A DNA stretch of 64,000 nucleotides. Source: Calditrichia bacterium (GTDB taxonomy: Bacteria > Calditrichota > Calditrichia > RBG-13-44-9 > J075). Position 1 is the stretch's first letter. Each line of letters opens with the position of its first letter. Shown piece after piece: positions 36,901 through 63,154 of the stretch. The stretch covers positions 1 to 64,000 of the forward strand of contig JANQRS010000018.1 in NCBI GenBank assembly GCA_028284445.1, given 5' to 3'. Under the pieces are notes generated by a model, which made no database searches, was not told the origin of the DNA, and was given only the letters and a program-made list of their open reading frames with translations. Position numbers and translations under genes: made by a program.

Positions 36901-38270
36901 ATGTCCCGGGACGTCGGTCTGTTTCTCAAATTCACTCGAATTAGACTTCCCCTATCAGTTCCCAGCCACAATGACTGATCGCTTTCTGCCAATACAGCCG
37001 TAACCGAGCTTACCAGTTCCTTCTCTCCCGGCGATGCTTGCAGTTGCCACACTTCAAAGAACGATTTCCGGGCATCGAGCTTATAGATGCCTGCACCACC
37101 GCTTCCCAACCAGATCATCCCGGATTGATCCTCCCACATCGCGGTAATTCTACCGGCGCGCATGCCGTGTTGATTTGACGAGAGTTGTAATCGGTAAATT
37201 GTATAGCGCTGCCCGGCCGCGAGATTGCTTTCAGCTTGAAAGGAATTTTTCTGTAGCTTGCAAAGGCCGTTTGATGTGCCAATCCAGAGATCGCCCAGCC
37301 GGTCAACCAGGAGCGAATGAATAAAGGGATGGTTGATACTATTGGGATTTTTCGGCTGGTATTGATGGCGCCGAAATTTGATGCTTCCGTCCGCTTCGAC
37401 ATTCATCAATTCATTAAGACCGGCGGCCGTCCCAACCCACATCCTTCCGGCTCTATCTTCAGCAATAGCCGTAACCACATCACTACTAAGGCTTGCGGTG
37501 TCCCCGGCATTGTGCAGATACGGCGTAAGTTCGAAGCCGTCTAAAATTTGTCCCTTCGTGAATGCAGGCGATAGTTTATTCAGTCCACGCCCTTTGGTGC
37601 CAATCCAGATGTTGCCGAAAGGGTCTTCATAGAAGGCCGATATTGGCATATTAACACCGTCGGCATCAACAAAATGATGCTGCAACACAACCGTTTCAGC
37701 TGCGGCATTTTGGCTTGCCTTGCCACGGTCATTTAGCCCATCAATATCATCGGTAATGATCAACCCTGAATTCTCAGTGCCGATATAATAATGCCCGGAG
37801 CGGGACTGATAGAGAATATTGATACGCCCATATTGCCCCAGGCCGGTAAACCGCTCGAATTGTTCCCCAGCCGGATCAAAGCGATTCAAATAATTGACAG
37901 TAGCGACCCAGAGATGTCCAGATCGGTCTTCATAAATGCCTGTTGCTGAGGAGGCGGAAAGTGAGGCATCATTTAGCGGATGGTATTGGAAGATTTTGTA
38001 TTCGTGGCCATCATAGCGGGCAATACCATTGGCGGTTGCGAACCACAAGAAACCCTGACGATCCTGCATAATATGCCGGACATCCTCATCCGGCAGCCCG
38101 TCCTGCAGGGTCAATCGGTCAAAGTGGAAATCTTCGTCCTGCGCGGACAAGACAGCTATCCCCATGAACAGAAGCGTGAAAATGAAATATGTAGCAATCT
38201 GGCCTCGAATTGTGATTCCTCTCTTTTGGAACGCATTAAAAAAACAGGTTTTGAATAAAAAGCGCCTCAT
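33969..38270 (-). CDS. Hybrid two-component system regulator (HTCS): periplasmic two-component-regulator beta-propellers plus Y_Y_Y, TM, HisKA, HATPase, REC and AraC HTH domains
   Basis: Signal/TM; repeated WxGT..GL propeller blades (LWFATANGIARYD, LWVATVNYLNRFD, MWVGTAAGLNEL ...); TM helix (FRLAMLAIFLGISGTVFFV); H-box (FTNISHEFRTPLSLI); HATPase (DSGIGI...GGTGLGLA); REC (ILAIVEDNQDI...DLVISDVMMPGKDGY); C-terminal AraC HTH (ISEIAFQTGFNNLSYFARSFRKQFG). Classic Bacteroidota HTCS architecture. Confidence 0.85.
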   Translation of the reverse strand: MRRFLFKTCFFNAFQKRGITIRGQIATYFIFTLLFMGIAVLSAQDEDFHFDRLTLQDGLPDEDVRHIMQDRQGFLWFATANGIARYDGHEYKIFQYHPLNDASLSASSATGIYEDRSGHLWVATVNYLNRFDPAGEQFERFTGLGQYGRINILYQSRSGHYYIGTENSGLIITDDIDGLNDRGKASQNAAAETVVLQHHFVDADGVNMPISAFYEDPFGNIWIGTKGRGLNKLSPAFTKGQILDGFELTPYLHNAGDTASLSSDVVTAIAEDRAGRMWVGTAAGLNELMNVEADGSIKFRRHQYQPKNPNSINHPFIHSLLVDRLGDLWIGTSNGLCKLQKNSFQAESNLAAGQRYTIYRLQLSSNQHGMRAGRITAMWEDQSGMIWLGSGGAGIYKLDARKSFFEVWQLQASPGEKELVSSVTAVLAESDQSLWLGTDRGSLIRVNLRNRPTSRDMLRDYATFQLQGGNIYSILEADEKHLLVGSSSGLVKFSKQAGSSLSYRYLPEKRSDGIPVYQIFRDSRGLIWLATGKGLHQIDSTGNVTSYLPDANNALSLAWPGVWTVFEDRQGFIWTGTKFGGISRLDPKTGKFINQPHNSISSIFQDQSGSMWFGSYSSGVSKLLSIREDGMELQHYLREDGLPSNHIKSMSGDKQGNLWLSTTNGLSRFYPATESFRNYPAADELRGIKFNRGAAIVSSDEALIFGGNRGLVKFYPEEMKETSLTPGIVLSEFRKQNVRAILEKPISEADTIYLSYDDDIVTFKFAALDFRDPDNNQYAYRLDGLNDDWVYSGNQNSATFMNLEPGSYTLRVKASNSYGIWNEQGIAIALVVTPPWWHTWWFRLAMLAIFLGISGTVFFVRRQSIKRQKQELENLVALRTRELEDQKYLAEEAKRIIEQQAQKLIEADQMKSRFFTNISHEFRTPLSLIIGPLKEMLNANGSNGHSQSKHLGVMYRNSQRLLDLINQLLEISKLESGDMKLAAEDVDLLAFLQPIYDSYLSEADRKQIDYDFLAGSQRPFVHIDKVKFEKVIYNLLSNAFKFTPDFGKVTLAVEESNGRIMIGVTDSGIGIPEDQLQLVFDRFYQADAPEARSFGGTGLGLALSKELVMLHDGTIEAESLPGKGSRFIVCLPATARSNHAVMQNGHSASVPLNGISAEAKQLENPGMQTNKIDRTFRKPQPAEADATILAIVEDNQDILDYLVGHFSKEFEIVTANNGLSGLELVRNKIPDLVISDVMMPGKDGYQLCDALKRDEITCHIPVILLTAKAAKQDKIDGLQLGADAYITKPFEIEEVKVRVGKLIEQRQRLKIRYSRQIFLQPQDIAITSLDEAFLKKLCAFVETHFDDPQLASTALEKQFNMDKRQFQRKVRALTGQTPSQFIRSMRLQRARKLIENNAGSISEIAFQTGFNNLSYFARSFRKQFGHLPSELKK

Positions 38271-38384
38271 ATAGAGCTCATTCGTGACAACCGGGTTCTT
38301 AAGAAAAGGCTGCAAGTATCGAGGAATTTCTTTACCTTTCCCGCTCATCTATTTCACAACGATAAGCCGAGGCGGTGTCCACAT

Positions 38385-40976: not shown

Positions 40977-41125
40977 CCCGCCCGATTATCGCCAAACCCG
41001 TACTTGCCATGCCCACTCCGCTTTTATTGCCAACTATTTGGTAAAGACTTATCGGATTGGTCGATTTCCTCCCGCAAAAAAATAAATTTGACGAAAAAGA
41101 TAATTATTCAGACGGGGCAGGCGCT

Positions 41126-43108
41126 ATGTTCAGCATATTACGTTTTTCCATCTCGCATAAACTTTATTGCTTTATCGCAAACAGTCTTGCAAAAACGGTA
41201 TCGGCTTTTCTGGTTCTCTTCCTGGTAGCGCTTCAAGGCATTAACACAGAGCTTTCTGCACAAACCTTCACCCGCATTACGATTGATAATGATGCTACCT
41301 GGGCAAGAGGTGTGAGCTGGATTGATTTTGATAATGACGGCGATTTGGATTTATACATAACGAATAATGACTATAGTGGGGTGATCACGTTTGTTGCCGA
41401 GAAAAATCGCAACAAATTTTTTCGCAATGACGGCAATGATGTCTTCGTACCCATCATACCGGAAGGCATGGCAGATGATACCAGCTTTACGCTGGGTCAG
41501 ACCTGGGCAGACTATGACAATGACGGCAACATGGATTTATACACCGCAAATGTCAATGCAATTTACGAGACAACCTTAAACACGCCAACAACTCTGGGCT
41601 CAGCATTATATAGAAATCAAGGATCACCAGACTATTTATTCACGCGTCTTGCTTCAGGCGAGGCAAGCAGTCTCAATCGGATAGGCGGATTTGCAGCCGC
41701 CTGGGGCGACTATGACAACGATGGTTATGTGGACTTGTTCATTACAACACCCAGCACCAGTTTTTATCCGAATGAAGTTCAGACCAACATTTTGTTCGAC
41801 AATAACGGCGATGGCACTTTTGCAAGAAGCTCTACAAGCCCAATCGTAAACGTACCGGCTGATTTTTATACGATACCTTCCTGGTCCGACTACGATCTGG
41901 ATGGTGATCTCGATTTATATATTACAGCCGGACCGATTCAAAATGGGGTACTACAACCGGACTATTTCTTTAAGAACATGCTCAAAGAAACAGATGTCGC
42001 TACTTTCGAGAGAGATACCACAAGCAATTTTGCTTCCGAGCCACGTGACGCGCAGCAAGCAAATTGGATAGATTTTGACAATGATGGCGACCTGGATCTT
42101 TATGTGACCAATTTTGGCGGTACGCCCGGCATTAACGTCGGGATGGCCAATGATCTTTATCGCAATGACGATGGCGAATACACAAAGATTACCAGCGGTG
42201 CCCCGGTAGCAAACAGGAACGTTTCATTCGGTCAGATCTGGGGAGATTTTGACAACGATGGTGATCTGGATTTATACGTAACGAATTTTACCAGCCAATT
42301 CAATTTCGGCGGCAATGACTATTACCAGAATGACGGCGCGCCGGACTATAGCTTCGCACGTATTAGAACAGGCGATTTTGTGACCGGAAATCGTGCCAGC
42401 TGGGGGGCAGCATCAGGCGATTACGATAACGACGGCGATCTCGACTTGTATGTCACTATCAACAGCTTAACAGCAGGCCCCGCCCGTGATGCTTTATATC
42501 GAAATGATGCCAACAATGGCAACAATTGGATCAACATCCAATGTGTTGGCACGGCTTCCAATCGAGCAGCAATAGGCGCCATAGTACGGGTTAAAGCGAC
42601 AGTTTTTGGCAATACATTCTGGCAGATGCGAGAAATATCCTCTCAAAACGCCGCAAATGGCCACAACAGCCTAAGAGCGCATTTTGGCCTGGGTGATGCA
42701 ACGCTTATTGACTCGATTTCTGTCACATGGCCATCCGGAATGATAGATATTGCGACGAACGTTTCGCCAAATGCCTTTATGACCGCCACCGAAGGCAGCC
42801 AGATTGTTGTCTCAATCGATGAACGCGTCCCGTTCGTTGGACCAGAGTCTTTTTTATTGCACCAGAATTTCCCCAATCCATTTAATCCGTCCACCACCAT
42901 TCGCTTCTCGCTTCAGCAAAGAGAGGAAGTAACCCTAAGAGTATTTGATGTGGTTGGGAGGGAGGTTGCGACCTTGGTGAATGATGAGTTGCCCGGCGGA
43001 GACCATTCAGTGGTTTTTGCTGCCGGCGAGCTGGCGAGTGGGGTCTACTTCTATACCTTAAGCGCTGGTCAATTTATCCAAACAAGAAAGGCATTGTTAA
43101 TGAAGTAA
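41126..43108 (+). CDS. FG-GAP/VCBS-repeat protein with an ASPIC/UnbV domain (CRTAC1-like) and a T9SS C-terminal sorting domain
   Basis: Signal peptide; at least 7 FG-GAP-like repeats (WIDFDNDGDLDLYITN, WADYDNDGNMDLYTAN, WGDYDNDGYVDLFITT, ...); ASPIC/UnbV block (NNWINIQCVGTASNRAAIGAIVRVKA...SQNAANGHNSLRAHFGLGDATLIDSISVTWPSG); C-terminal NFPNPFNPSTTIRFSL...RVFDVVGREVATLVND...GVYFYTL. Confidence 0.8.
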   Translation: MFSILRFSISHKLYCFIANSLAKTVSAFLVLFLVALQGINTELSAQTFTRITIDNDATWARGVSWIDFDNDGDLDLYITNNDYSGVITFVAEKNRNKFFRNDGNDVFVPIIPEGMADDTSFTLGQTWADYDNDGNMDLYTANVNAIYETTLNTPTTLGSALYRNQGSPDYLFTRLASGEASSLNRIGGFAAAWGDYDNDGYVDLFITTPSTSFYPNEVQTNILFDNNGDGTFARSSTSPIVNVPADFYTIPSWSDYDLDGDLDLYITAGPIQNGVLQPDYFFKNMLKETDVATFERDTTSNFASEPRDAQQANWIDFDNDGDLDLYVTNFGGTPGINVGMANDLYRNDDGEYTKITSGAPVANRNVSFGQIWGDFDNDGDLDLYVTNFTSQFNFGGNDYYQNDGAPDYSFARIRTGDFVTGNRASWGAASGDYDNDGDLDLYVTINSLTAGPARDALYRNDANNGNNWINIQCVGTASNRAAIGAIVRVKATVFGNTFWQMREISSQNAANGHNSLRAHFGLGDATLIDSISVTWPSGMIDIATNVSPNAFMTATEGSQIVVSIDERVPFVGPESFLLHQNFPNPFNPSTTIRFSLQQREEVTLRVFDVVGREVATLVNDELPGGDHSVVFAAGELASGVYFYTLSAGQFIQTRKALLMK

Positions 43109-46003: not shown

Positions 46004-48391
46004 TTAGAAATCGATGACGATGCCAATAGTCGGCAAGACCTGTCCACTGGAAGAAGGCTCGATTTCCACCAATTCCCGTGGCTGTTGCACGTTACCGGCT
46101 TCATCCCGCCTCAGACCATAGGTTGGTGCTGATGGCAGCTCGCTGCCGGTTATATTCTGAACTTCCAAATAGGCATCCAGCGTCCAGGTTCTGAAATTCC
46201 ATTTCTTGTCGATACGAATATCGAGCGAGTTGAGCGCCGCCAGCCGCTGCTCACCAAGACTGCTGTAATCAAATATCAGCGCCGGATATTCCTCGAGTGT
46301 CGCTTCTCTGTCCAGGGCCGCAAAAGGTGCCTTGCCGGCATAACGCAGCCGCGCGCCGATTTCCAGACTATTACCGATCTTATAGCCACCGGTAAAGCTC
46401 ACAAGCTGGCGATTATCCCAGAGCGAAGGGAGGAATTCGTCGCGATCAAAGCCGGTAAATTCGCTGCGGTATAGCGTATAGGCCAATAGCCCATAGAAAT
46501 TGTTGCTGAGTTTGCGTTGATAGGTAAATTCTAAGCCGTATGTTCTGCCAAGTCCCACACTTTCGATCGCCTCGTTTCCAAATACAGCGAAATCTGCACC
46601 CAGGTTTGCCAGCGAGACGCTGTCACGAAGCGAAACCGGATAATTGTCGTAGCGCTTATAAAATGCTTCCAGCGATATCTGCGTGGTTCTGGAGGGATCA
46701 AGCGAGATGCCGGCAACCAGGTGATCGCTTCTGATATAGCTGGCGCCTTTGTTAGGCAACGCCAGGGTGTTGTCTCTAAATCCCAAAATGGTGTTGGGCG
46801 GCAACTTATAATATCTACCGATCGACGCATTTACAGCAAGCCGCTTGGCCTGATTGATGACGTAAGCAAGCCCCAACCTCGGTGAAATCGTTTCAGCCAG
46901 ATTATTACCGTCCGTACTAAAGGTATTCCCATCCGTTCGCAGGCCCACTGTTGCATTCAGTCGATCCGCCAACCAATTGCCGGAAGCCTGGGCAAATATG
47001 CCGTAGCGGTAATAGGATAAATCCGTGTCGAATTGGTTATTGTTGACCAAGTCTTCCGTTGCGTTCTTATACAGCGTATGTTGTAATAAAATGCCGCTGG
47101 ATATAGACCACCTGTCATCGAAGCGGTTATACTCGCTTCTTAGCTTTATGTCCCGCTCGGTGGAATTATTATCAAGAAACAGCCCGCTCAGATTCTCATT
47201 ATCACGGTATCGGCGAAAGTTGTTGTCAAAATAATTCATGCTTAACGCCGTCCGGACCTTACTCTTGAAGTCCCTGAATCGATGTGTCCAGGCAATGCCA
47301 TGCGTGGTTGTCCACTGTTTGATAACCGGCACCTGATCCAGCACCGCCTGCTGTTCCTCATCGATGTCATCCGGCACATTAATCCGGAAATCATCGATAG
47401 ATCCCAAACCGATCAGACTGATTTCATCATAATTGCTGGATTTGTGGCTCACTTTGTATTGATAATCCCAGTAATCGGGCAAAAAGGGCAGCCCGACCAC
47501 TTTGAACAAGAACTGCAAATAGGATCTGCGCAGCGATAACATATAGGTGGTATTGGAATATGCTTCATCCTTGCCCTTAAACAAGGGCCCCTCGACTGTC
47601 GCGGCCGCTTCACTAAAACCGAGGCGAAAATTATACTGATGCCGCTCGGCATTTCCATTGCGCTGTGTGAATTGCAGCACGCTGGACAGAACGTTATCGT
47701 ATTTCGCCGGAAAAGAACTGGCGCTGAGGGTCACACCTTCAAAAAACGATACGTTAAGCAAACCAACCGGCCCGCCTGCACTGCCCTGAGTAGCAAAATG
47801 ATTGATATTGGGAATTTCGATGCCGTCAAGATAGTAGACATTCTCATTTGGCGCCCCGCCGCGAATAATGACGTCGTTTCGAAATCCAAGCGGTGAAGCG
47901 GTTACTCCCGGTAAGGACTGTATCACCCTGGCAATATCATTATTCCCTCCCGGATATGTGGCAATTTCAACCTGCGACAGTTCACGGATCGATACAGGAT
48001 TGTCTTCCGGCTTTTCAAACAAACCCTGCGTTGTGACTACCTCATCCGTTTCAATGGCAACTGACTGTAGCTGAAAATTGATGTCCGGGTTTCCGCCGGA
48101 TTTAACTGAGGTATTAAATTTGGTTGCGGCTTTGTAGCCGACATATTCTGCAATCAGATTATATGTTCCGGTGGGCACATTTTCTACCTGGTAGTAGCCA
48201 TTCAGATCAGTTGATGCGCCAAATCCAGTGCCTTCGAAATAAACATTTACACCAATAAGCGGTTCCCCGCTCTTCATATCCGTTACGTAGCCGGAAATCG
48301 AGCCTACCGTTTGGGCAAAAATATCTATGGCTGTAAGGGCAAGGATACTCAACACCAGTGCTATACCTGTTATCCCTTTTCTTGATTCCAT
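46004..48391 (-). CDS. TonB-dependent outer-membrane receptor with an N-terminal carboxypeptidase-regulatory-like domain
   Basis: Signal peptide (ALVLSILALTAIDIFAQ); CarbopepD_reg-like N-terminal domain (GYVTDMKSGEPLIGVNVYFEGTGFGASTDLNGYYQVENVPTGTYNLIAEYVGYK); plug plus 22-strand barrel-like alternating pattern; C-terminal aromatic residue (...TIGIVIDF). Confidence 0.8.
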   Translation of the reverse strand: MESRKGITGIALVLSILALTAIDIFAQTVGSISGYVTDMKSGEPLIGVNVYFEGTGFGASTDLNGYYQVENVPTGTYNLIAEYVGYKAATKFNTSVKSGGNPDINFQLQSVAIETDEVVTTQGLFEKPEDNPVSIRELSQVEIATYPGGNNDIARVIQSLPGVTASPLGFRNDVIIRGGAPNENVYYLDGIEIPNINHFATQGSAGGPVGLLNVSFFEGVTLSASSFPAKYDNVLSSVLQFTQRNGNAERHQYNFRLGFSEAAATVEGPLFKGKDEAYSNTTYMLSLRRSYLQFLFKVVGLPFLPDYWDYQYKVSHKSSNYDEISLIGLGSIDDFRINVPDDIDEEQQAVLDQVPVIKQWTTTHGIAWTHRFRDFKSKVRTALSMNYFDNNFRRYRDNENLSGLFLDNNSTERDIKLRSEYNRFDDRWSISSGILLQHTLYKNATEDLVNNNQFDTDLSYYRYGIFAQASGNWLADRLNATVGLRTDGNTFSTDGNNLAETISPRLGLAYVINQAKRLAVNASIGRYYKLPPNTILGFRDNTLALPNKGASYIRSDHLVAGISLDPSRTTQISLEAFYKRYDNYPVSLRDSVSLANLGADFAVFGNEAIESVGLGRTYGLEFTYQRKLSNNFYGLLAYTLYRSEFTGFDRDEFLPSLWDNRQLVSFTGGYKIGNSLEIGARLRYAGKAPFAALDREATLEEYPALIFDYSSLGEQRLAALNSLDIRIDKKWNFRTWTLDAYLEVQNITGSELPSAPTYGLRRDEAGNVQQPRELVEIEPSSSGQVLPTIGIVIDF

Positions 48392-53612: not shown

Positions 53613-53975
53613 CTACTTCTCAACCCAGAGGCGGCGGATAATGCCGTTGTCTTTACCGCCGTCTATTTCATAGTCAATTGTAACCGTCCACTCATGCGCA
53701 AAGGCATCAAGCAACAGGTCCAGCATCCCCTGCCTGACAGCCTGGTTGCTGTCATTACGCAGTTGAAACCCATAAGCTTTATCGTTTTGCTTATCCAGGC
53801 ACACAACTACTTCGACATTGATCTGGTCTGTTGCCGGACCATAGCGCGTCCCAACATCGTGAACGCGCAACAGTGTAATCTTGCCGCTTGTCTGCTTTAA
53901 TGCGGCATTACCGGTGTGCGGAACTGTAATCGCCAGTATGGTGCAAATACATAACAGAATTATTGATCGTGACAT
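53613..53975 (-). CDS. Small secreted hypothetical protein (about 120 aa), last gene of the sigma/CHAT operon
   Basis: Signal peptide from an internal Met (MSRSIILLCICTILAITVPHTGNA); 57-nt gap to the upstream gene. Confidence 0.4.
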   Translation of the reverse strand: MSRSIILLCICTILAITVPHTGNAALKQTSGKITLLRVHDVGTRYGPATDQINVEVVVCLDKQNDKAYGFQLRNDSNQAVRQGMLDLLLDAFAHEWTVTIDYEIDGGKDNGIIRRLWVEK

Positions 53976-54109
53976 AACTATTCTCCCTTCCTTTTCACCC
54001 TGCATATTATAAAGAGACTCTTCCTTAGCATAAGTCGCAAAAATAATATGCAATTCTCAACAAACTGCTCGCATGGCGAATCCAAAAACAGGTTAGGCAA
54101 ATGCTATCC

Positions 54110-54463
54110 CTAGCGCATTGCCCGGCTCTGCCCAAATATGTTGAACCATCGTACTACCAGTAGATTGTAAAAGGCGCTGAAAAGTGTCCCACCAACAAAT
54201 CCATAAAGAAATGCTTTCGCGAAAGCGAAAGCATCCAGGTCGAAGAAATCTTCAATCCCGGATACCGGCGGCAAAAATCCTGTTGGCAAGAACTTCAACG
54301 TGGCCAGGAATATCACAAAAGTGATCCCAAGTGCAATACCATAAGCAATGGCTATGACACCACTGGCCTGAGTGTACAGTAATTGTCCACGGCTTGGTGT
54401 ATCGTCGCCACCACCGGACTTGGAATGTTGTTCGTGGGCAAACCCTAAAAAATCTCTATCCAT
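54110..54463 (-). CDS. Small two-TM membrane protein (117 aa) in the sigma/CHAT operon
   Basis: Two hydrophobic helices (VIAIAYGIALGITFVIFLATL; FLYGFVGGTLFSAFYNLLVV); 16-nt gap to the TPR-CHAT gene. Confidence 0.4.
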   Translation of the reverse strand: MDRDFLGFAHEQHSKSGGGDDTPSRGQLLYTQASGVIAIAYGIALGITFVIFLATLKFLPTGFLPPVSGIEDFFDLDAFAFAKAFLYGFVGGTLFSAFYNLLVVRWFNIFGQSRAMR

Positions 54464-54478
54464 TTTTCTCCTCCGTAA

Positions 54479-57400
54479 TTAAATATAAGCGGTTTGTGCA
54501 AGCGTAAAGAGCTTCCACAAATATGGATGAGCCGCTTCATAGATTTCGTCATTATTGAAGACTTGAATCCACTTTTTTTCGGTTAACTGCAAAGCTTTAT
54601 CGGGCGGATGTCCATCCTGCACAAGTCTTAGAAAGTTAAGTAATTGATCAAATGCTCTCCGACTGTCTATTTCCCATAAACTTGCTAAACATGCCTTAAC
54701 ACCGCGGGCAAGCAAAGCTTGTTGGAAACCGGAAAATCCGCTACCCTCATAAAGCTTTCCATTGGCTGTCTCACAACCAACCAGAAAAACAAACTGAGCT
54801 TCCGACCAGTCTTTTTTTTTGAAGTTACGCAGATGAATTTCCTGAGTAATTGGTTTTCCGTCACTCTCCCGCATAGCGGTAATTTCAAAAACCGAGCCAT
54901 CGGGGAAATCTGGATCAGCTCTACTATGCCCTATAAAGAAATAGATATCAAACTGTCCAGCCACATGATCTGGAAAAACATTTGTCTCGATTAATGTATC
55001 AGCGACAACCAATTCCTCAACCTTGGGGAACATCTTACGCAGTTCAGCGACAAAATAATCTGCACTCTTAAACGAGGCCCGATCGGCACTGACCAAAATT
55101 CGGGGGGCATCAAAGGAAACTGCGGAAGACAGAAGGGGCTTCAATTGCAGAAAAAAGGCACTGGGGATCGTTACCTGCGACGCTATTTCGACAATGTAGC
55201 CGTCTTTGGCTGAATCGGTATATTTCAGGCAGGCAAAGGGAATTCCATGTAGAATATCGTCCGGAATAAATAGCACCCTCTTTTTACTCATCAGCTTTTC
55301 CCTCAACTCCGGCCAACCGAGACTGATCTCCGATATTTTGTCAATCGCTTTATCGACCGCGTCATAATTTTGCGCCAATAGGAGTGGGTCGAATTTTTTC
55401 AGGTGACTTTTTGTGTTGTTAATTTCGGTCAACAGATCATAACTCACCCGGTACAACTCCTCCTTTTTTAAGAGCTTCAGATGGAGATTTAGTGTGTCCT
55501 TATCAAGCGCAAAGAGATAGAGTGTCTCATCTGTCACCATATAATTCAAAAGAAGATCATCTGTCCGCAGATTTGCTTTAACCTTATCAATATCTGTCCG
55601 AAAAAATCCTTTTGACTTCGCACCGGCCTTTAGCGCATCCTGAAAACTGTGCTTGGATTCACGAGCCTTGAGGTAATCAAGCTTGATAAACGCCTCTCTT
55701 ACGTTTCCCGACTTCAATTCATATTCTACCGCCTGTTGTAAATAGGTATGGATTCGTCGACGAAATCTCATAAGGTTGTCAAGATTCGAGAACGATTGGC
55801 TAACATTTTCAATTGCCGGGAAAAGCTTGTTAGAATACTCCAATGCCTCCGCTAATTGCCCCTGCGCTGCTGCTACCTGGGCAAATAAGCCCAGTGCGTC
55901 AATTTGACCTTGAGAATCTTGCAGGCGATTCGCCAACTCCTCCATCTGTTTCAATTCATTTTGGACCTGCTGATACTCCTCCGCCTTAAGGTGACTTTGG
56001 ATTAAGTATGTCCGATTCTCAAGGGATTTTCTAATCAATCCCGATTGATCATATATCTTTATAGCCGACTGGAAACTTTGAATTGCAAGCGGATAATTTT
56101 CGGCCGTCAAGTTCAGCCGGCCCGTGGAAACCAAATAATCCCCTTTGACGATTGGAAAATCGACAACTGCTATCAGATCTTGAATTTGTTTGTTGTATTT
56201 ATCAAGACTGGCGGTATCTTTTTGCTCAACAGCTAATTCTCCCAGCAGACCCAAAAGCCGCATGCGCTGCTCGATATTTTCACGATTATATTGCAGGTGC
56301 AAATCAAACGCTTTCTGATAGTATTTTTGGGCTTCATCGTATTCACCCAATCGAAAAAACAATTCCCCCAAATTGGACCATACGACAATTTGATTGCTAA
56401 CATCTCCGGCCTGTAAGAAATCCAAGGCCATATTGTAATCAGCCTCCGCTTGATCGTAATTTCCGAGAGCCCGATGGGTTATTGCTCTGGTATTGTACAG
56501 GGTATGATGGGCGGAACTATCCAGCGAGAGCTGGCTAATTTGATTACAGATATTAAGAGCCTGCAGATAATTTCCGCTATCCCACTCAGCTTTAGCAGAA
56601 CCCATTTGCGACATCAAATAGTAATAGGGAGTACTAGGTGAGGCGCTCAGCTGAGTTGCTCGCCTTGTAGCCTCTCTATATGCTTTGGTTGCCATTTCGG
56701 CCTGACCGGCAGCCACTAAGACTTCGGCATAATTATATTGCAGCCCCAATCCTCTCAATTGAAATCCCAAGCGATCCGCATGTTTTATAGAGCGCTCGCC
56801 GATAACTAAAGCCAGATCAAGTAGTCCTCGGTTCTCAGACAGCATAATCATTATCCGCTGTGTGAAATCCAGCCGTAGTTTCTGATCTGGAATCTCACTC
56901 AATATTCGCAGGCCAACAGCAGCATAGTGTTGGGCCCGTTCAAAATCGATTTTGTATATGGCAAAGCACAAGCGCTCAGCACTGTAAGCCCGAAGCCATT
57001 TTTTTGCCAGCGTGCGGTCAAAACGAGACACTTTAAGTACCCAATCGCACCAGTAAGCACATTCCGTTTGTTCATAGATCTCTCTTGCCAGATCATGCGC
57101 TTCGGCAAAAAGCGAATCGCTTAGCTCCCGATGTCCGCGAACGCGGCTCACTATGGCTTTCAGCAGTTGTCGCCGCAGTTGCGCTTCCACCATGTAACTC
57201 TCGGTTTGTGGAGCTGCAGAATCTGGCCCTGCCAATGCTGCCCGGCGACGAGCAATAATCTCATTTAGCGTTTCCACTTCGAGCTTCGCCACTAGTTCAT
57301 TTTGAGCGTAGTCTACGACCTTCTGACGCATCGAATCAGGCACAGATTGGTTCGTATAGTAATTGTAAAGGCGATTTACAATAGCCTGCTTTTCCATAAG

Positions 57401-58135
57401 ACTTTCAGCCGACAGCACCTCCTCCTGCAAATCAATCAGATCGGCACGCTGAAATGCATCCGGTACTGGGAGGATAGTCCCACATATTCCAAAAACAACT
57501 ACGATTGTGACGGAAATTTGTATATTCATTTCAAATTGAAAACCGGTTAGGCGAAAAAGATTAATCTCAAAGAACCGTTTAAGACGTCGCCACATGACTC
57601 CAAATCCCTTCCCAATTCTTCGGAATAGATCCTCAAGCGAAGTTGGCGTTGGTATTTGCTGGTACTGACCCGATTCAACAGCTAATTGCTGTGAGTCTAG
57701 CCATTGGTTTCGAACTTGACGATAGATTTTTGCATAAGGCTCAAAGATCGATCCGGCGGAGTTGGTCAATGCTTCAAGCTCATCCCGGCGCGGGACCCAG
57801 GTATCCGGCTCTTCCTCCTCCATGTGATGTGGTACGCCCTTGGATGGCAATTTAGACGAATCCTCTTCTTGCGCCGGGCGCTCCGGCAACTCCTTATGAG
57901 GCATTTCAGACGCTGCTTCGTCCTGCCGGGCAGCAGCGGCCTGAGTCTCCTCTCCTGATTTCTTGTCAGATGCCTTCTCAATCCTGATAGGCTCCGGCTC
58001 AACCACGACATATTGGTCATGGTGTATCTGCCAGCGCCTGGCCAATAAGGCATCGTGTCTTCTTAGGTCATGTTCTGATAAATCTTTTATATATCGTTTA
58101 AGCAATACGCGCAATGATGAGTGTAGACCCTTCAT
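54479..58135 (-). CDS. Membrane-anchored TPR-repeat plus CHAT-domain (caspase-like peptidase) protein, 1218 aa
   Basis: N-terminal about 190 aa is acidic and low-complexity, then one TM helix (ISVTIVVVFGICGTILPV), more than 10 TPR-like repeats (YNMALDFLQAGDVSN, LGELFFRLGEYDEAQKYYQKAFDL ...), and a C-terminal CHAT domain with a conserved His...Cys dyad (YFFIGHSRADPDFPDG ... FVFLVGCETANGKL). Confidence 0.75.
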   Translation of the reverse strand: MKGLHSSLRVLLKRYIKDLSEHDLRRHDALLARRWQIHHDQYVVVEPEPIRIEKASDKKSGEETQAAAARQDEAASEMPHKELPERPAQEEDSSKLPSKGVPHHMEEEEPDTWVPRRDELEALTNSAGSIFEPYAKIYRQVRNQWLDSQQLAVESGQYQQIPTPTSLEDLFRRIGKGFGVMWRRLKRFFEINLFRLTGFQFEMNIQISVTIVVVFGICGTILPVPDAFQRADLIDLQEEVLSAESLMEKQAIVNRLYNYYTNQSVPDSMRQKVVDYAQNELVAKLEVETLNEIIARRRAALAGPDSAAPQTESYMVEAQLRRQLLKAIVSRVRGHRELSDSLFAEAHDLAREIYEQTECAYWCDWVLKVSRFDRTLAKKWLRAYSAERLCFAIYKIDFERAQHYAAVGLRILSEIPDQKLRLDFTQRIMIMLSENRGLLDLALVIGERSIKHADRLGFQLRGLGLQYNYAEVLVAAGQAEMATKAYREATRRATQLSASPSTPYYYLMSQMGSAKAEWDSGNYLQALNICNQISQLSLDSSAHHTLYNTRAITHRALGNYDQAEADYNMALDFLQAGDVSNQIVVWSNLGELFFRLGEYDEAQKYYQKAFDLHLQYNRENIEQRMRLLGLLGELAVEQKDTASLDKYNKQIQDLIAVVDFPIVKGDYLVSTGRLNLTAENYPLAIQSFQSAIKIYDQSGLIRKSLENRTYLIQSHLKAEEYQQVQNELKQMEELANRLQDSQGQIDALGLFAQVAAAQGQLAEALEYSNKLFPAIENVSQSFSNLDNLMRFRRRIHTYLQQAVEYELKSGNVREAFIKLDYLKARESKHSFQDALKAGAKSKGFFRTDIDKVKANLRTDDLLLNYMVTDETLYLFALDKDTLNLHLKLLKKEELYRVSYDLLTEINNTKSHLKKFDPLLLAQNYDAVDKAIDKISEISLGWPELREKLMSKKRVLFIPDDILHGIPFACLKYTDSAKDGYIVEIASQVTIPSAFFLQLKPLLSSAVSFDAPRILVSADRASFKSADYFVAELRKMFPKVEELVVADTLIETNVFPDHVAGQFDIYFFIGHSRADPDFPDGSVFEITAMRESDGKPITQEIHLRNFKKKDWSEAQFVFLVGCETANGKLYEGSGFSGFQQALLARGVKACLASLWEIDSRRAFDQLLNFLRLVQDGHPPDKALQLTEKKWIQVFNNDEIYEAAHPYLWKLFTLAQTAYI

Positions 58136-58161
58136 ACAAACGCCTCCTCAAGATTTTTCAA

Positions 58162-61100
58162 TTATTCTGGCCGGTTCAATTTACTGAGAAGTCGATCATA
58201 TATAAAATTCGCGATCAGACCGTCAAAGCAATAAGTACCGGCAGCATTGTCCATCGTGCAGCGATCATGGCGCGGATCACGATCCGGGAAATATGCGCCC
58301 CAATTCTCTTCCGCTGAAGGATGACTAAGATCGGAATTAAAAATACTGCCATTATATTCGGCGAAAGCCTTATGCACCGGACTCATCTTACCAATACTGG
58401 GGATCGCCTGCTCCAGACGATTCACATAAAAAGATGATTTTCGGTCAGGATTGACAAACGACGGATAATACTCGTCAACACAAGCACCATTAAAGGCACT
58501 GGACATTGCATGCGCGAATTCGTGGATATACGTATCATTGTCCACACCCCAAATATTGATGGCAATCCGGCCTTTGCGGGCTGAATGATATTCATGAATG
58601 AAACGGAAAGGCGCTTGCGGATAACGATTGTGATGTATGGTATCGCCTTTGCTGCCTCTTCGGAAATCGCCGGGAGCGGGGATTGGTTCAGTTGGGGCAA
58701 GCGGATCGGAATCAAAATTGTATGGCACCCCATCAGGTTCATTTTGAAAATAGGGGTCCTGAAAGTTGTTCGGGTCTTGAAATTCCTGCCAATCGCTATA
58801 ATGGGCCGAGGCACGAGTATATTTTAGATTGGCTGATAAGGCAATTATCACATCTGTATCTTCGTACAAGCGCTGCCAATTCATACCAGGTATTTCATCA
58901 AGATCTTTTGCATGCATTTCGAGGATATGCGAATAACTGTCTTGCATTCGTGCCATGGCATCGAGGCTCTCTCCATCTCCTATGCCGTCTCCAAAACCAA
59001 CAAGGTTAAGAGATGGCTGCAACATGCCAAATTCATCAGCGCGCTCGGAGTAGGCATCCCAATTTGGATCAAAAACTGTCACAATTCTAATTCGTGACCA
59101 GATATCATCTTGCCCGAGCACTTCGTTTATTTCAAAATTGTAAAGCGCTTCATTCACGGCTTGCAGAAATAGGTCCAATCTATAACGAATAAGATCCAGC
59201 AGATAATCACCCGCCTCATTTTCATCTCCGTCGCGACTTAACAAAAACGGATTGGCAACGAAGGCAATCGTGTATGGACGAACCGGTGGATTTTCAATTC
59301 TATAATTATATAGATTTCGTTCATTAAATTTGAAGTAGCTCGCACCTGCAGTGTCAATTTTTTCCAGGATCTGTCTGGCAATTTTGTTGTTATCACCCTG
59401 GTTTAGACGCATTAACCTTGTCAATTCACCAAATAAGTGATCAAATATCGTTTCCAAATGTCTTTTGCCGGGCGTTTCAAATCGGGAGACCCAGAAGCCA
59501 AGAAAAGAAGTCCTGTTATTTGCGGTCAGAATCTCATAAAGGTAGCGGATTTCGAAACGAAGGAGATTCTCGTCCTGGAAGTCCAACTCTTGTCCCAGAA
59601 ACAGGCTAATTCGCTTCAATAATTCAACAGCTCTTTCATCTTGTTGATTTATTAATTCTGAAATTCTATGCTCTAGTTCTGTTGTCAGCTCACCTTGCAG
59701 GGCTGGATCTCGCAGAAATTGAAGTCTGCACTTCTCGTTCAGAACCCCAAAATACCTTCGAGCATTTTTGATCAAGTTATCTTTATCATGATCGCCAGCC
59801 TCGCTATTTGCAGGCAAAAAGGCGATCTGCTCTATTATCGATTGATAAATCTCAAAATCAGTTTCCCGTTCAGGATCAGAATCGCTGACTTTCAATTGAT
59901 CAATGAAAGAAGCAACATCGTCTATTCCCAGCTTTTGCTGAACGTTCAGCTTTGTGTCATCGTCCAAACCTTCAAAGTGATCTTCGATTTCAGTTAATAT
60001 ATCTTCAATAGATAATATGTCTTCATCATACAAACCGGCAATAACATCGAGGAGGCGAGGCACAGAAAGTGGACTAATCAGCTCAACTTTTTGCAGCAAA
60101 GTGGCAAATTGCCGAAATCGCCGTTCCATGGCTTGCACGATACGCCGCCAAGCTACATCACCAGGGACTTCAAGTTTTCCCTTTAAGGCGTTTTGTTGTT
60201 CCTCCGTCAGTTGATTATAAGCGAAAGCGAAGAACTTGTGTACATCGGTATAGTTCATTGACAGCAAGCAACGCCTTAAGCGGAGTTCAAACAGTGTTTT
60301 CAGATCTGACTGTAAATTATCGCGAATGTATTCCATCCTGTCGCAGAGAATATCCGCTTGCCGCTGTTTTCTGCGAGCTTCCGGCATGCTGAGGGCACGA
60401 AGCACGGATTCGCGCTGAGCATCACTAACATCTGTATTCTCTTCTTTAAAAAAGGCAGTCAGTTTTTCATTGATTTTTTTGATATCCCTTTCGAGACCGG
60501 TACTGCCAACCTGGCGCAACCTTCCATACCAGGACAGCGGCTTAAATATTTCCAGCAGCCCCCGGGTTTCACTCTTAATGGGGGATTTAATAATATTGAC
60601 AATCTTTTTGGTATCGTAGGCAAAGACAGTCATGACTTTCTTGCGTAAGAAAATTCTGATGTAGAGATAAACCACATCATTGTATAAGATAGCAAATAGA
60701 ATTCCGATCAAATATCCCCATAGATACCATTTCGCAACGGTGATAAACTCAGGCAAATAAGTGGGCGAAAAATCAGCCCAAATTGATACTATTTGGGTTA
60801 CAAACAGGAACAAAAGCACCATGAGGAAAAAAGGTGTGCCCCATACAGAACCGGCGATGAATATCAACAAGATGATTAAGGAGATATACAGTGGTGGAAG
60901 ATTCGCTGCCCCGGCCAACTGCATTTGTGCATCCAGGCATAATTCTTCCTCTACCTGGCCGGGCTTCAGTGCACATTTGTCGGCACAACGAACCTCTAAG
61001 CAATCGGGCTGTAAAAGATGGCCACTACATTCGCCAATACAACGACTATCCAAGGCAATATTTTGCGAAATTGGAATAATGACTACCAGAATAACAACAA

Positions 61101-61290
61101 GCAAAGCCACAGACATCCCGTACAGGTGAATACGAAACATTGTTCGGCGGGGCAGCCGTCGCACTTGCAACAATGACAATCGTCTCCCAAAAAGATGGTC
61201 CCGACCGGCTTGCTTTAATATCCACGTTAAGATATCCATTAGAATAAGGAAAATACTAACCATTGCTCCTCCTCCAAGAAGTCGATTCAA
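58162..61290 (-). CDS. Large polytopic membrane protein (1042 aa) with a C-terminal HExxH zinc-metallopeptidase-like motif; family unknown
   Basis: N-terminal about 230 aa has 5 or more TM helices and a Cys-rich loop (DSRCIGECSGHLLQPDCLEVRCADKCALKPG). About 800 aa of soluble region follows. A HEFAH motif sits in the context DTYIHEFAHAMSSAFNGACVDEYYP near the C-terminus. 27-nt gap to the TPR-CHAT gene and 40-nt gap to the anti-sigma gene. Confidence 0.6.
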   Translation of the reverse strand: MNRLLGGGAMVSIFLILMDILTWILKQAGRDHLFGRRLSLLQVRRLPRRTMFRIHLYGMSVALLVVILVVIIPISQNIALDSRCIGECSGHLLQPDCLEVRCADKCALKPGQVEEELCLDAQMQLAGAANLPPLYISLIILLIFIAGSVWGTPFFLMVLLFLFVTQIVSIWADFSPTYLPEFITVAKWYLWGYLIGILFAILYNDVVYLYIRIFLRKKVMTVFAYDTKKIVNIIKSPIKSETRGLLEIFKPLSWYGRLRQVGSTGLERDIKKINEKLTAFFKEENTDVSDAQRESVLRALSMPEARRKQRQADILCDRMEYIRDNLQSDLKTLFELRLRRCLLSMNYTDVHKFFAFAYNQLTEEQQNALKGKLEVPGDVAWRRIVQAMERRFRQFATLLQKVELISPLSVPRLLDVIAGLYDEDILSIEDILTEIEDHFEGLDDDTKLNVQQKLGIDDVASFIDQLKVSDSDPERETDFEIYQSIIEQIAFLPANSEAGDHDKDNLIKNARRYFGVLNEKCRLQFLRDPALQGELTTELEHRISELINQQDERAVELLKRISLFLGQELDFQDENLLRFEIRYLYEILTANNRTSFLGFWVSRFETPGKRHLETIFDHLFGELTRLMRLNQGDNNKIARQILEKIDTAGASYFKFNERNLYNYRIENPPVRPYTIAFVANPFLLSRDGDENEAGDYLLDLIRYRLDLFLQAVNEALYNFEINEVLGQDDIWSRIRIVTVFDPNWDAYSERADEFGMLQPSLNLVGFGDGIGDGESLDAMARMQDSYSHILEMHAKDLDEIPGMNWQRLYEDTDVIIALSANLKYTRASAHYSDWQEFQDPNNFQDPYFQNEPDGVPYNFDSDPLAPTEPIPAPGDFRRGSKGDTIHHNRYPQAPFRFIHEYHSARKGRIAINIWGVDNDTYIHEFAHAMSSAFNGACVDEYYPSFVNPDRKSSFYVNRLEQAIPSIGKMSPVHKAFAEYNGSIFNSDLSHPSAEENWGAYFPDRDPRHDRCTMDNAAGTYCFDGLIANFIYDRLLSKLNRPE

Positions 61291-61329
61291 TAAATCAGCG
61301 GTGATTTTTGTAGATGACTATCGGTACTA

Positions 61330-62376
61330 TTAGTGACCTTGTCCGGGCGGCGCTTGCTTCTCCTTCAGATCTTCAGCAATCCGCCGTCGCATTTTTTCAG
61401 CGATGATTTTCCACCCCGGATCCTCTTCCTGCTCGATATATACCGAGAGCAATTGGATGGCATCATGAAGCTCTCCATTTATCCGCTTAAGCAACGCAAG
61501 ATTAAATCTTGCTTCCTTAAGAGTCTGATCTTTTGCAAGTGATTTTTCGAAGTAATATGATGCACTATCATAGGCCAAAATCCGAAAACAGAAGACACCA
61601 ATATCATTTAGCTGCTCAGCACTAATATTCTCACTTGCGCGAATTCTAGCCAGATCCTTTTCCGCCTGATTGATATCTCCTTCAATCAATGATATCTGAA
61701 AGGCCAATCGCATGGCCTCTGCATGGCGAACATCTTCGACGAGTACATTCTGTAAATTCTCTTTGGCTTTATCGATCGAGCGGTTATTGTCAGACCCAGT
61801 ATTTTCAGACATTATTCCCTCCAGAGCGGTGGGAGAATAGTTACCGACAATTCTTACTGCGCTTTCGCTACCAGCTCCTATATCAACTAGATAGTTTTCT
61901 TCAAGTATCGCTTTTGTTTCACTAATTTGAGCCATTGTTCTATATGTACCAAGCCCCCAACTCCCGCCGAAGACAACCAAAATTACCGCGGCGGCTGTTG
62001 TCAAATACTGCCAAGCTTGATAGCGGGGCATCTTCTTTCCCGGAATGTCGACCGGCTTGTTTTCGTCTTCCAACTTGCGTCTTGTATTTGACTGTGCCCG
62101 GATTTCAGCGACAATATTAGCTGCCTGTTCTTCCGGACTAAGTGCAAATAATCCCTCAATCTCTCTTAGCTCTTTCTCTGTTGGCTCCCCGCCATATTGC
62201 ATATGATCCAGCAACATTGAATAGCACTGTTCACATTCATTTACGTGTTCATATATTTTGCGATTCTCATCGTCACTGGTCTGCCTGTCCATGTGCCTAA
62301 GTAACATATTTGTATATCGACATCGCATTTTCTGTCGTTCTCCATTAACATGTTTTATGATATCCGTTGCACTCAT
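61330..62376 (-). CDS. Anti-sigma factor-like protein: N-terminal zf-HC2 zinc finger, one TM helix, C-terminal TPR domain
   Basis: zf-HC2 pattern (C-x-...-H-x3-C-x2-C: MRCRY ... EHVNECEQCY); TM helix (WQYLTTAAAVILVVFGGSWGLGTY); C-terminal TPR-like repeats (YYFEKSLAKDQTLKEARFNLALLKRINGELHDAIQLL). Confidence 0.6.
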   Translation of the reverse strand: MSATDIIKHVNGERQKMRCRYTNMLLRHMDRQTSDDENRKIYEHVNECEQCYSMLLDHMQYGGEPTEKELREIEGLFALSPEEQAANIVAEIRAQSNTRRKLEDENKPVDIPGKKMPRYQAWQYLTTAAAVILVVFGGSWGLGTYRTMAQISETKAILEENYLVDIGAGSESAVRIVGNYSPTALEGIMSENTGSDNNRSIDKAKENLQNVLVEDVRHAEAMRLAFQISLIEGDINQAEKDLARIRASENISAEQLNDIGVFCFRILAYDSASYYFEKSLAKDQTLKEARFNLALLKRINGELHDAIQLLSVYIEQEEDPGWKIIAEKMRRRIAEDLKEKQAPPGQGH

Positions 62377-62515
62377 ATGACGCTACCTCACCCATCATTA
62401 TGATTAATACCTCCCTGATAGCCTGTAATTTGCTGCTTGATCAGGATTATTATTCCAGATTCCCCGTTTTGCATTTTGAGCTATGTATAGATTTGCTACG
62501 TTATATCATATAAAC

Positions 62516-63154
62516 CTACATTGCAGAAGGTGCCACAATCCTTTGTCCGTCAATGCAGTGATTCCGAATCAGTTTGTGAAGCCCGTCAATTATGCGACAG
62601 ATACTGCTAAAGTGTAGGTTTACATTTAAACTTTCCGCGATATCCTTTTTGGGAATCCCGTTGAAGTAGTGCAGGGTATAGATCAGCTTATTGCGCTGCT
62701 TGTGCTTATGCTTGACCATTATTTCTTCCAGGCAGGCTTCAACAGCTTCGCGCAAATCTTCCGGTATCGCCTCAAAATCCGTTTCTATATCAGGAAAATC
62801 ACGCTCACTTGCAGGTGTCGGCTGTTTACTTTCTTCCTTCAGGAACCTTACGGCCTCTCGATGTGAAATAGTTCTCAGATAGTTGATGATTGTCCCATCA
62901 TACCTGTTCTCGAGCTGCCGTAAAGCCCGGCAGTCCTTATTCGCTAAAATGCTATAGACTCTCGATACCACTTCATTAACCATTGAGAGCTCAGAGTAAT
63001 CATACTGCCGGAAAACCTGATACACTTTGTAGCCAATAACCTTGGTTTGATATCGCCGAACGAACTCGATCCAAAAAAGGTCATTTTCGTAATCATTCTT
63101 CATAAGATCGATGAACTCCTTATTCGACAATTCTCTCAGTTGCGTATTCTTCAT
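62516..63154 (-). CDS. Divergent ECF-type sigma-70 family RNA polymerase sigma factor (212 aa)
   Basis: Region 2-like (LFWIEFVRRYQTKVIGYKVYQVF) and region 4 HTH-like (RNKLIYTLHYFNGIPKKDIAESLNVNLHFSSICRI) segments; size typical of ECF sigma factors; first gene of the operon (140-nt gap to the anti-sigma gene). Confidence 0.5.
   Translation of the reverse strand: MKNTQLRELSNKEFIDLMKNDYENDLFWIEFVRRYQTKVIGYKVYQVFRQYDYSELSMVNEVVSRVYSILANKDCRALRQLENRYDGTIINYLRTISHREAVRFLKEESKQPTPASERDFPDIETDFEAIPEDLREAVEACLEEIMVKHKHKQRNKLIYTLHYFNGIPKKDIAESLNVNLHFSSICRIIDGLHKLIRNHCIDGQRIVAPSAM

Follow-up and report, generated by a model that had tools for sequence, protein, structure and literature searches.

What activates a sigma factor of the extracytoplasmic function (ECF) type whose gene stands next to those of an anti-sigma factor and of two putative proteases? 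ECF sigma factors count among the main signalling systems of bacteria, and for many ECF groups the mechanism of activation is not known. The question is raised here by a locus on the minus strand, at positions 53,613 to 63,154 of a 64,000-nucleotide stretch (the window) of contig JANQRS010000018.1 from a Calditrichia bacterium (assembly GCA_028284445.1). Five of its six open reading frames (ORFs) belong to a conserved cassette that encodes a divergent ECF sigma factor, a zinc-finger (ZAS) anti-sigma factor with periplasmic tetratricopeptide repeats (TPRs), a membrane-anchored metallopeptidase, an adaptor (called 4a below) with a TPR-CHAT protease, and a small membrane protein. We read this cassette as a trans-envelope signalling switch, the proteases of which serve as the activation machinery of the cassette sigma factor. 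We give this reading an even chance of being right, and we are less confident of the exact order of the cuts than of the activation role itself.

A conserved cassette in KSB1 and Calditrichota

To see which genes of the locus stay together, one genome per GTDB species was scanned with a 49-sequence alignment of the peptidase, which returned 58 loci. Nearly all of these were located in metagenome-assembled genomes (MAGs) of Calditrichota or of candidate division KSB1, the latter including Ca. Zhuqueibacter, with some of the hosts labelled only "bacterium" or "Cytophagia". To identify the neighbouring genes, the window proteins served as queries first and family hidden Markov models (HMMs) afterwards, and all synteny counts refer to KSB1/Calditrichota loci having enough flank. 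The results showed a common order on one strand: sigma factor, anti-sigma factor, peptidase, 4a (133-343 aa), TPR-CHAT protein (~1000 aa) and a homologue of the 117-aa membrane protein. The sigma gene was found 5' of the peptidase gene at 35 of 37 loci, and a recognisable anti-sigma gene was present at 35 of 40. The 4a gene lay between the peptidase and CHAT genes at 31 of 32 loci, while the TPR-CHAT gene lay 3' of the peptidase gene at 32 of 33 (at the 33rd, L030, CHAT is in frameshifted pieces), directly followed by the 117-aa homologue in 30 out of 31 cases. All of these genes were on the same strand, and this synteny rules out a chance adjacency. No further conserved neighbour was found at the 58 related loci, and nine weaker peptidase matches in other phyla (L049-L056 and L059) came without the partner genes. 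Furthermore, at least five genomes hold two matching loci each, with cassette genes at both loci in three of these genomes; such a duplication of whole sets fits partner-specific signalling modules.

A preliminary description of this DNA, made from the letters alone, had listed six minus-strand ORFs, and the ORF calls returned them at the same coordinates. It had also treated the genes as a functional unit, which agrees with the syntenic occurrence of the sigma, anti-sigma, HExxH, TPR-CHAT and 117-aa proteins in KSB1/Calditrichota genomes; the first four of these, whose linkage it had proposed to check, are indeed linked across the loci. Its "six-gene operon" with an adjoining histidine kinase was, on the other hand, an over-reading. 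The 146-aa ORF had no homologue at any of the 58 related loci and the kinase had no counterpart next to any related cassette, and because neither recurs we exclude both from the conserved unit, which, as judged from sequence comparison, is composed of the sigma factor, the anti-sigma factor, the peptidase, 4a, the TPR-CHAT protein and the 117-aa protein with two transmembrane (TM) helices.

The spacing of the genes, together with the synteny, suggests that the minus-strand genes are co-transcribed: the successive gaps from the sigma gene to the 146-aa gene are 139, 39, 26, 15 and 56 nt, and the kinase gene follows 286 nt further on. A scan for promoters and terminators gave only background-level signal. 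A weak terminator-like hairpin between the 117-aa and 146-aa genes (54068-54080, minus strand), found in that same scan, fits an end of the conserved cassette after the 117-aa gene.

A divergent ECF-type sigma factor and the adjacent anti-sigma factor

The window sigma factor has a length (212 aa) within the expected ECF size, but taken alone it scored below the curated cut-offs (Sigma70_r4_2, E 0.004; NCBIfam SigK, 9e-8; TIGR02937, 1.2e-5). Sigma70_r2 was matched by 8 of its 21 orthologues, and a 21-sequence profile of the family matched the solved AlgU and E. coli sigma-E (RpoE) structures in the PDB over the regions sigma-2 to sigma-4 (E ~2e-6). The orthologues rescue the weak scores of the window protein, and the profile evidence points to a divergent ECF family.

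The anti-sigma factor presents a similar picture. Its match to Pfam zf-HC2 is weak in the window protein (E 0.06), while 20 of 23 orthologues match zf-HC2 (PF13490; best E 7.7e-15) and all 23 match TPR. The zf-HC2 gene lies directly 3' of the sigma gene in the window, as it does at the 35 of 40 related loci mentioned above, which is the adjacency of a cognate anti-sigma factor. The protein carries the zinc motif of ZAS domains, HVNECEQC (HxxxCxxC; nt 62224-62247), in which H44, C48 and C51 are conserved in at least 90% of the sequences, and its one TM helix, already noticed in the preliminary description, covers residues 125-143 (nt 61948-62004). The CHAT domain predicted in that description was solid in the window protein itself (see below), while the sigma and zf-HC2 domains, weak alone, are supported through the orthologues.

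The TM helix of the anti-sigma factor is separated from its TPRs by a "D-x-R-L-S-G-G-Y" (RLSGGY) segment at residues ~170-185, which reads VRIVGNY in the window; R175 of this juxtamembrane segment is at least 90% conserved and G178 is invariant. The segment is a candidate for the site at which a protease recognises or cuts the anti-sigma factor. In four Calditrichia MAGs (L034, L035, L036 and L043), the sigma gene is followed, 5' of the peptidase gene, by a ~130-aa ORF and by a gene for a ~400-aa protein that the anti-sigma HMM did not recognise; one of them (L036) carries three tandem triplets of sigma factor, small ORF and 400-aa protein.

An extracytoplasmic TPR-CHAT protease with an adaptor module

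In the 1218-aa protein of the window, Pfam places TPRs ahead of the CHAT domain, which is the arrangement of a TPR-CHAT protease. The catalytic residues are His1070 (nt 54926-54928) and Cys1121 (nt 54773-54775), and this dyad, the conservation of which had been left as a check, is invariant in 33 of 33 sequences. The protein has one TM segment (residues 201-225) with K/R on its N-terminal side. A strongly hydrophobic signal or anchor segment was present at the N-terminus of 27 of 30 stand-alone CHAT orthologues, and a lipobox in at least five; because they start in this way, the TPR-CHAT part is predicted to be extracytoplasmic. A profile of the CHAT family searched against the PDB matched Csx29 (E 2e-12), separase (0.02) and DdvA (0.048). 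For an AF2 model of residues 226-1218 (pLDDT 71), the top Foldseek matches were again Csx29, separase and DdvA (8rot_A), all at ~1e-14, and the comparison with DdvA extended over 962 aligned columns (E 6e-14).

The N-terminal part of the same ORF proved to be a separate gene, 4a, in most relatives. The in-frame fusion to CHAT occurs only in the window and in L016, where it arose independently, and the single TM helix 201-225 of the fused ORF stands in place of the 4a tail and the CHAT signal peptide. In the relatives, the N-terminus of 4a is conserved ("PLHPxFRxLL…") and its C-terminus is a TM helix, and in between come a disordered stretch and then another conserved helix; the window module has conserved cytoplasmic N-terminal helices, a disordered acidic stretch and one TM helix. 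No Pfam match, no PDB profile match and no similarity to the anti-sigma factor were found for 4a, and a homologue search with its alignment returned one protein. Being fused in one gene argues that 4a and CHAT work together. The fusion and the orthologue signals also bear out the topology first drawn for this protein (cytoplasmic tail, one TM helix, extracytoplasmic TPR-CHAT region); the view of the ORF as a single protease holds for its CHAT part and had missed the fused adaptor gene.

A membrane-anchored peptidase of an unannotated family

The third large protein, 1042 aa long (its public annotation begins at Met10), recovered only itself in a word-indexed homologue search. An exhaustive HMMER search, however, returned a family of 143 clusters, 81 of them at E <=1e-30, in which the matches cover the C-terminal ~400 residues and often the N-terminal membrane block as well. 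No Pfam domain was found in ten relatives tested, and the 1042-, 117- and 146-aa proteins of the window had no Pfam, NCBIfam or PADLOC match. The AF2 model (pLDDT 71 overall) contains four TM helices (54-71, 134-149, 152-171 and 179-214, in line with hydropathy), a small sheet in which strand 40-45 runs alongside strands 220-235, a poorly predicted helical linker and a compact C-terminal domain, with a pLDDT >90 through most of residues 660-1042. This domain holds the zinc motif HEFAH (residues 923-927, nt 58510-58524), followed by D939-E940-Y941, and a candidate Met-turn, C1011-T-M1013-D1014 (nt 58249-58260), with an invariant C-x-M-D. The invariant residues of the 49-sequence alignment are H923, E924, F925, H927, G935, E940, Y941, C1011, M1013 and D1014, and conservation of D939 reaches at least 90%.

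The signature of igalysins is HExxHxxxGxxD with a Glu and a Tyr switch after it, together with a Met-turn (PMC12237041). The window peptidase shows this triad with a longer spacer, i.e., HEFAH-x7-G-x3-D-E-Y as against HExxH-x3-G-x2-DEY in igalysins (MEROPS M64). Pfam Peptidase_M64 was matched neither by the window protein (E up to 0.1) nor by 10 relatives (E up to 0.01), and Foldseek comparison of the domain with igalysins was not significant; its catalytic fold was scored as that of an igalysin, while by sequence it falls outside M64. Overall, the cassette peptidase belongs to an unannotated family of its own, comprising the 143 clusters and lacking a Pfam model, which may be related to igalysins. 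The known igalysins, such as the T. ramosa IgA peptidase and B. fragilis BF3526 (PDB 4DF9), are secreted, whereas the window peptidase is predicted to be cytoplasmic and membrane-tethered. The polytopic HExxH protein first described thus has its four TM helices, and the igalysin-like metzincin domain had escaped notice; the AlphaFold and Foldseek comparison proposed at that time gave a confident, igalysin-like model of residues 660-1042 with no significant Foldseek match.

The placement of this domain comes from charge. The mean number of Lys plus Arg residues over 43 relatives is 6.8 before TM1 and 6.0 after TM4, but 0.3 in each outer loop, and because of this distribution the peptidase is predicted to be N-in/C-in, with its catalytic domain in the cytoplasm. 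A Cys-rich loop between TM1 and TM2 of the window peptidase (residues 75-131), which is absent from most relatives, would therefore face the periplasm. The window protein also has a helical insertion of ~400 residues (~260-655, low pLDDT) that most relatives (550-690 aa) do not have. An assignment to the M50 site-2 proteases (S2Ps) was rejected, since the HExxH at residue 923 lies ~700 residues past the last TM helix, in a soluble domain, and PF02163 was unmatched.

The membrane anchor shows a similarity to the 117-aa protein. The second TM helix of the latter (FLYGFVGGTLFSAFYNLLV) aligns with TM4 of the peptidase (nt 60652-60740, minus strand; hhalign probability 91%, E 1e-6, 34 columns), and both contain the motif G(F/Y)xxGxxxxxxYNxLV. 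This alignment hints at a membrane module shared by the two proteins, and the 117-aa protein may duplicate part of the peptidase anchor as a protein on its own.

A split and extended relative of DdvS/DdvA

Which of the known protease-sigma circuits does the cassette resemble? In DdvS/DdvA of Myxococcus xanthus (2024), an ECF sigma factor is paired with a transmembrane ZAS anti-sigma factor that has a periplasmic TPR-CHAT region (PMC11506125; PDB 8ROT). The CHAT domain of DdvA has been proposed as its own site-1 protease, self-cleaving in trans before RseP acts, and truncated DdvA is RseP-dependent (PMC11506125). The cassette has the same kind of single-pass zinc-finger anti-sigma factor, presumably holding an ECF sigma factor, and the same kind of TPR-CHAT with an intact His-Cys dyad, predicted to be periplasmic as in DdvA. 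The two systems differ in that anti-sigma factor and TPR-CHAT form one polypeptide in DdvA and are separate here, where the anti-sigma factor has only TPRs outside the membrane. Because the two are separate, any cleavage in the cassette would truly be in trans. The cassette in addition has a predicted cytoplasmic metzincin, the adaptor 4a and the 2-TM protein; DdvS/DdvA, on the other hand, has an adjacent CBASS/CRISPR regulon, whereas none was found beside the cassette (no PADLOC match, no conserved neighbours). The hosts also differ (Myxococcota versus KSB1/Calditrichota), and the similarity of the CHAT sequences is marginal (the E of 0.048 given above).

Taken together, the cassette is a split, extended relative of the DdvS/DdvA design. 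What is known is ECF/anti-sigma signalling with a periplasmic TPR-CHAT; what sets the cassette apart is the splitting into separate proteins, the dedicated cytoplasmic igalysin-like peptidase, the adaptor and the small membrane subunit. Full-text literature searches found no description of the KSB1/Calditrichota cassette. The preliminary description had regarded Craspase as the only described pairing of TPR-CHAT with an ECF sigma factor and the proteolytic cascade as previously undescribed. Both statements have to be withdrawn, given that DdvS/DdvA and the DdvA proposal precede them (PMC11506125) and that SAVED-CHAT/PCaspase and CalpL/CalpT/CalpS are, besides Craspase, further protease-sigma circuits.

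The split arrangement is also found outside these phyla. Two unrelated metagenome contigs, L001 (342-4879) and L061 (4517-9381), encode an ECF sigma factor, a zf-HC2 anti-sigma factor and an exported TPR-CHAT protein, with no metzincin; their CHAT proteins are distant homologues of the window CHAT, and in L001 the trio includes an extra DUF8256 gene. Because these contigs carry the trio without the peptidase, the split trio appears to be a broader theme, widespread and uncharacterised, and its presence in other lineages suggests a wider class of envelope signalling.

Type III-E Craspase (Cas7-11/gRAMP, Csx29, Csx30, Csx31 and the RpoE-like CASP-sigma) likewise couples a TPR-CHAT protein genetically to an ECF-like sigma factor, which is freed there by proteolysis of its holder, and Csx29 is the best PDB sequence match of the cassette CHAT and one of its top fold matches. 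Csx29, however, is cytoplasmic and RNA-activated, whereas the cassette CHAT is predicted to be exported/periplasmic and membrane-anchored, and the holder is Csx30 in the one case and a zf-HC2 membrane anti-sigma factor in the other. The window contains no CRISPR array, and no Cas or defence model matched the cassette proteins, although not every window ORF was scanned for cas genes; the one PADLOC match was a generic TPR match to the CHAT protein. Membership in Craspase was thus rejected, as no cas genes were found and the CHAT is predicted to be periplasmic. Within these scans, the statement in the preliminary description that gRAMP or cas genes and a CRISPR array are missing was correct. Its idea of a relative of Craspase survives in part: the CHAT sequence is nearer to Csx29 than to DdvA, but the topology is like that of DdvA and not that of the cytoplasmic Craspase.

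The closeness to Csx29 also bears on the suggestion that the cassette is an antiviral defence switch, which would sense phage at the envelope and then turn on defence genes or kill the cell via its proteases. The characterised bacterial CHAT-sigma pairings are all defence-linked, and multiple diversified paralogues per genome resemble conflict systems. Nevertheless, we consider such a role improbable, because PADLOC was negative save for the generic TPR match, neither cas genes nor a CRISPR array were found in the window, no conserved defence genes stand beside the cassette in the 58 loci, the window neighbours are housekeeping or regulatory genes, and a CHAT that is periplasmic, as predicted, could not dock on a cytoplasmic Cas effector.

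Regulated intramembrane proteolysis (RIP) of anti-sigma factors (DegS/RseP on RseA; PrsW/RasP on RsiW) is another sequential proteolysis that starts extracytoplasmically on a membrane anti-sigma factor. The site-1 enzyme is a PDZ serine protease there, whereas the candidate here is an operon-encoded clan-CD cysteine protease; the M50 S2Ps of RIP have their HExxH inside a TM helix, whereas that of the cassette enzyme lies in a soluble domain predicted to be cytoplasmic. The cassette might still follow the canonical scheme, with CHAT as site-1 protease, a housekeeping S2P (RseP/M50) cutting in the membrane and the metzincin in an unrelated role, e.g., the maturation or turnover of 4a or of the 2-TM protein. 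The RseP dependence of truncated DdvA speaks for this scheme, as does a gene for an M50 protease with CBS domains 3.8 kb downstream in the window. That gene, however, is not conserved near cassettes, and no gene is linked more tightly to the anti-sigma and CHAT genes than that of the metzincin, a linkage not easily explained for an enzyme without a role in the pathway; we therefore regard the canonical scheme as very improbable.

A precedent for signalling through a metalloprotease on the inner side of the membrane is BlaR1, which senses on the outside of the cell and thereby turns on a metalloprotease that faces the cytoplasm and acts on a repressor (PMC9834060). Like the cassette peptidase as predicted, BlaR1/MecR1 (M56) is a polytopic zinc metalloprotease facing the cytoplasm, in which an extracytoplasmic event leads to the inactivation of a cytoplasmic transcription regulator. 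It is a gluzincin (M56) and not an igalysin-like metzincin, with no sequence similarity detected, and it unites sensor and protease in one chain, whereas sensing in the cassette would sit in TPR-CHAT, 4a and the anti-sigma factor.

A possible trans-envelope switch

How could the cassette proteases activate the sigma factor? In the mechanism that we propose, the anti-sigma factor presumably keeps the divergent ECF sigma factor at the inner membrane. The CHAT protease (together with 4a) would respond to a cue in the periplasm, probably a protein to which the TPRs bind, and once activated would clip the periplasmic juxtamembrane/TPR region of the anti-sigma factor in trans, in the site-1 role proposed for DdvA. 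The event would be passed to the cytoplasm via the shortened anti-sigma factor and/or the adaptor 4a. There, the tethered metzincin would destroy the cytoplasmic ZAS domain, in a BlaR1-like manner or under the control of the cytoplasmic domain of 4a, and a general S2P may or may not assist. The sigma factor would thereby be freed to transcribe its regulon. The predicted topology is in favour of this mechanism, with the CHAT outside, the metzincin inside, and the anti-sigma factor and 4a spanning both sides, and the idea of a dedicated proteolytic route to sigma release, already put forward in the preliminary description, remains a reasonable one. A narrower version, in which a two-compartment protease relay frees the ECF sigma factor without intramembrane proteolysis and the CHAT cut (or an action of CHAT via 4a) licenses the cytoplasmic metzincin, appears unlikely.

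Several points weigh against the proteases as the activation machinery. We infer every cleavage step, and the substrates of both proteases are guesses; in DdvA itself, dyad mutants have no phenotype, so that CHAT activity is unproven even there (PMC11506125). The cytoplasmic compartment of the peptidase domain is a prediction, and the spacer of its zinc motif is five residues longer than that of igalysins. In addition, a Calditrichia subgroup has no recognisable zf-HC2 anti-sigma factor. Searches 5' of the sigma genes (dyads; 7-mers with one mismatch) found no shared ECF-type motif above shuffled controls, and no shared regulon of the cassettes was found.

There is also a different explanation. 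The genes that lie 3' of a sigma/anti-sigma pair are often targets and not activators, as is commonly the case for the downstream genes of ECF operons. The cassette could thus be a conventional ECF switch with some other trigger, the peptidase, 4a, TPR-CHAT and 2-TM protein being its co-transcribed regulon, i.e., an inducible envelope and cytoplasmic proteolysis machine for other substrates, such as envelope proteins that are damaged or foreign. Since nothing conserved outside the cassette could act as an output, that part may fall to the cassette genes, and the link from the proteases to the anti-sigma factor as a substrate is inferred. We think this explanation rather unlikely, though it deserves serious consideration. 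The cassette parts mirror the layout of the anti-sigma factor, whose TPRs face the periplasmic TPR-protease and whose ZAS domain faces the tethered cytoplasmic protease; the union of anti-sigma factor and TPR-CHAT in the single DdvA chain speaks for CHAT as a signalling component; and complete cassettes are duplicated as sets within genomes.

If the proteases do activate the sigma factor, the cassette points to a route by which an outside signal may be passed to gene expression. Protease and presumed substrate are one chain in DdvA and separate proteins here, and the site-1 idea raised for DdvA therefore becomes testable in vitro. The cassette also adds a protease predicted to work on the opposite side of the membrane, from a family that is unannotated. 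The two-compartment relay, if true, would be a new mechanism of ECF activation and would give a cytoplasmic igalysin-like peptidase its first assigned function. Furthermore, the cassette offers a functional handle on regulation in the little-studied sediment bacteria of KSB1 and Calditrichota.

Coordinates and neighbouring genes

Table 1 Features of the cassette and of its surroundings in the window
Feature	Position (nt)	Strand	Basis or remark
Divergent ECF-type sigma factor, 212 aa	62516-63154	-	Family-profile and synteny support
Anti-sigma factor, single-pass, 348 aa	61330-62376	-	Cytoplasmic zf-HC2 (ZAS), TM helix, periplasmic TPR
Membrane-anchored metallopeptidase, 1042 aa	58162-61290	-	4-TM anchor, variable helical linker, C-terminal igalysin-like metzincin domain
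4-TM anchor of the peptidase, residues 54-213	60652-61131	-	Hydropathy, AF2
Igalysin (M64)-like metzincin domain, residues 660-1042	58165-59313	-	Cytoplasmic by prediction
4a + TPR-CHAT fusion ORF, 1218 aa	54479-58135	-	Pfam CHAT, alignment to separate ORFs of relatives
4a adaptor module, residues 1-225 of the fusion ORF	57461-58135	-	Alignment to separate ORFs
Extracytoplasmic TPR-CHAT (predicted), residues 226-1218	54482-57460	-	Pfam, AF2, orthologue signals
CHAT domain, residues 939-1212	54500-55321	-	Pfam CHAT (PF12770), E 8e-23
Conserved small 2-TM membrane protein, 117 aa	54110-54463	-	Synteny
146-aa ORF with signal-peptide-like segment	53613-54053	-	Cassette membership doubtful
Peptidase_M50 protein with CBS domains, 371 aa	48707-49822	-	Peptidase_M50, E 2.8e-22
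TonB-dependent receptor	46004-48391	-	CarboxypepD_reg domain
FG-GAP protein	41057-43108	+	Type IX secretion system (T9SS) sorting tail
Hybrid two-component regulator, Bacteroidota-type	33969-38348	-	Reg_prop/Y_Y_Y/HisKA/REC/AraC

The histidine kinase, the 146-aa ORF and the nearby M50 protease were each considered as parts of the cassette and rejected, as none of them is conserved with it. Between the cassette and the M50 gene lie the kinase gene, an oppositely oriented GNAT gene and a TetR-like gene. Although the M50 protease is the type of enzyme that a RIP model needs, its adjacency is probably a coincidence, because it is not conserved beside related cassettes. The other neighbours of the cassette in the window are housekeeping and regulatory genes. 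At lower window coordinates, the hybrid regulator, the FG-GAP protein with its T9SS tail and the TonB-dependent receptor point to a host of the FCB group, as do the relatives of the cassette. Finally, a 9-nt tandem repeat (GTGACTAAA, ~11 copies) occupies positions 1-98 of the window, and degenerate copies of it, partly as an inverted pair, are found at 2779-2841.

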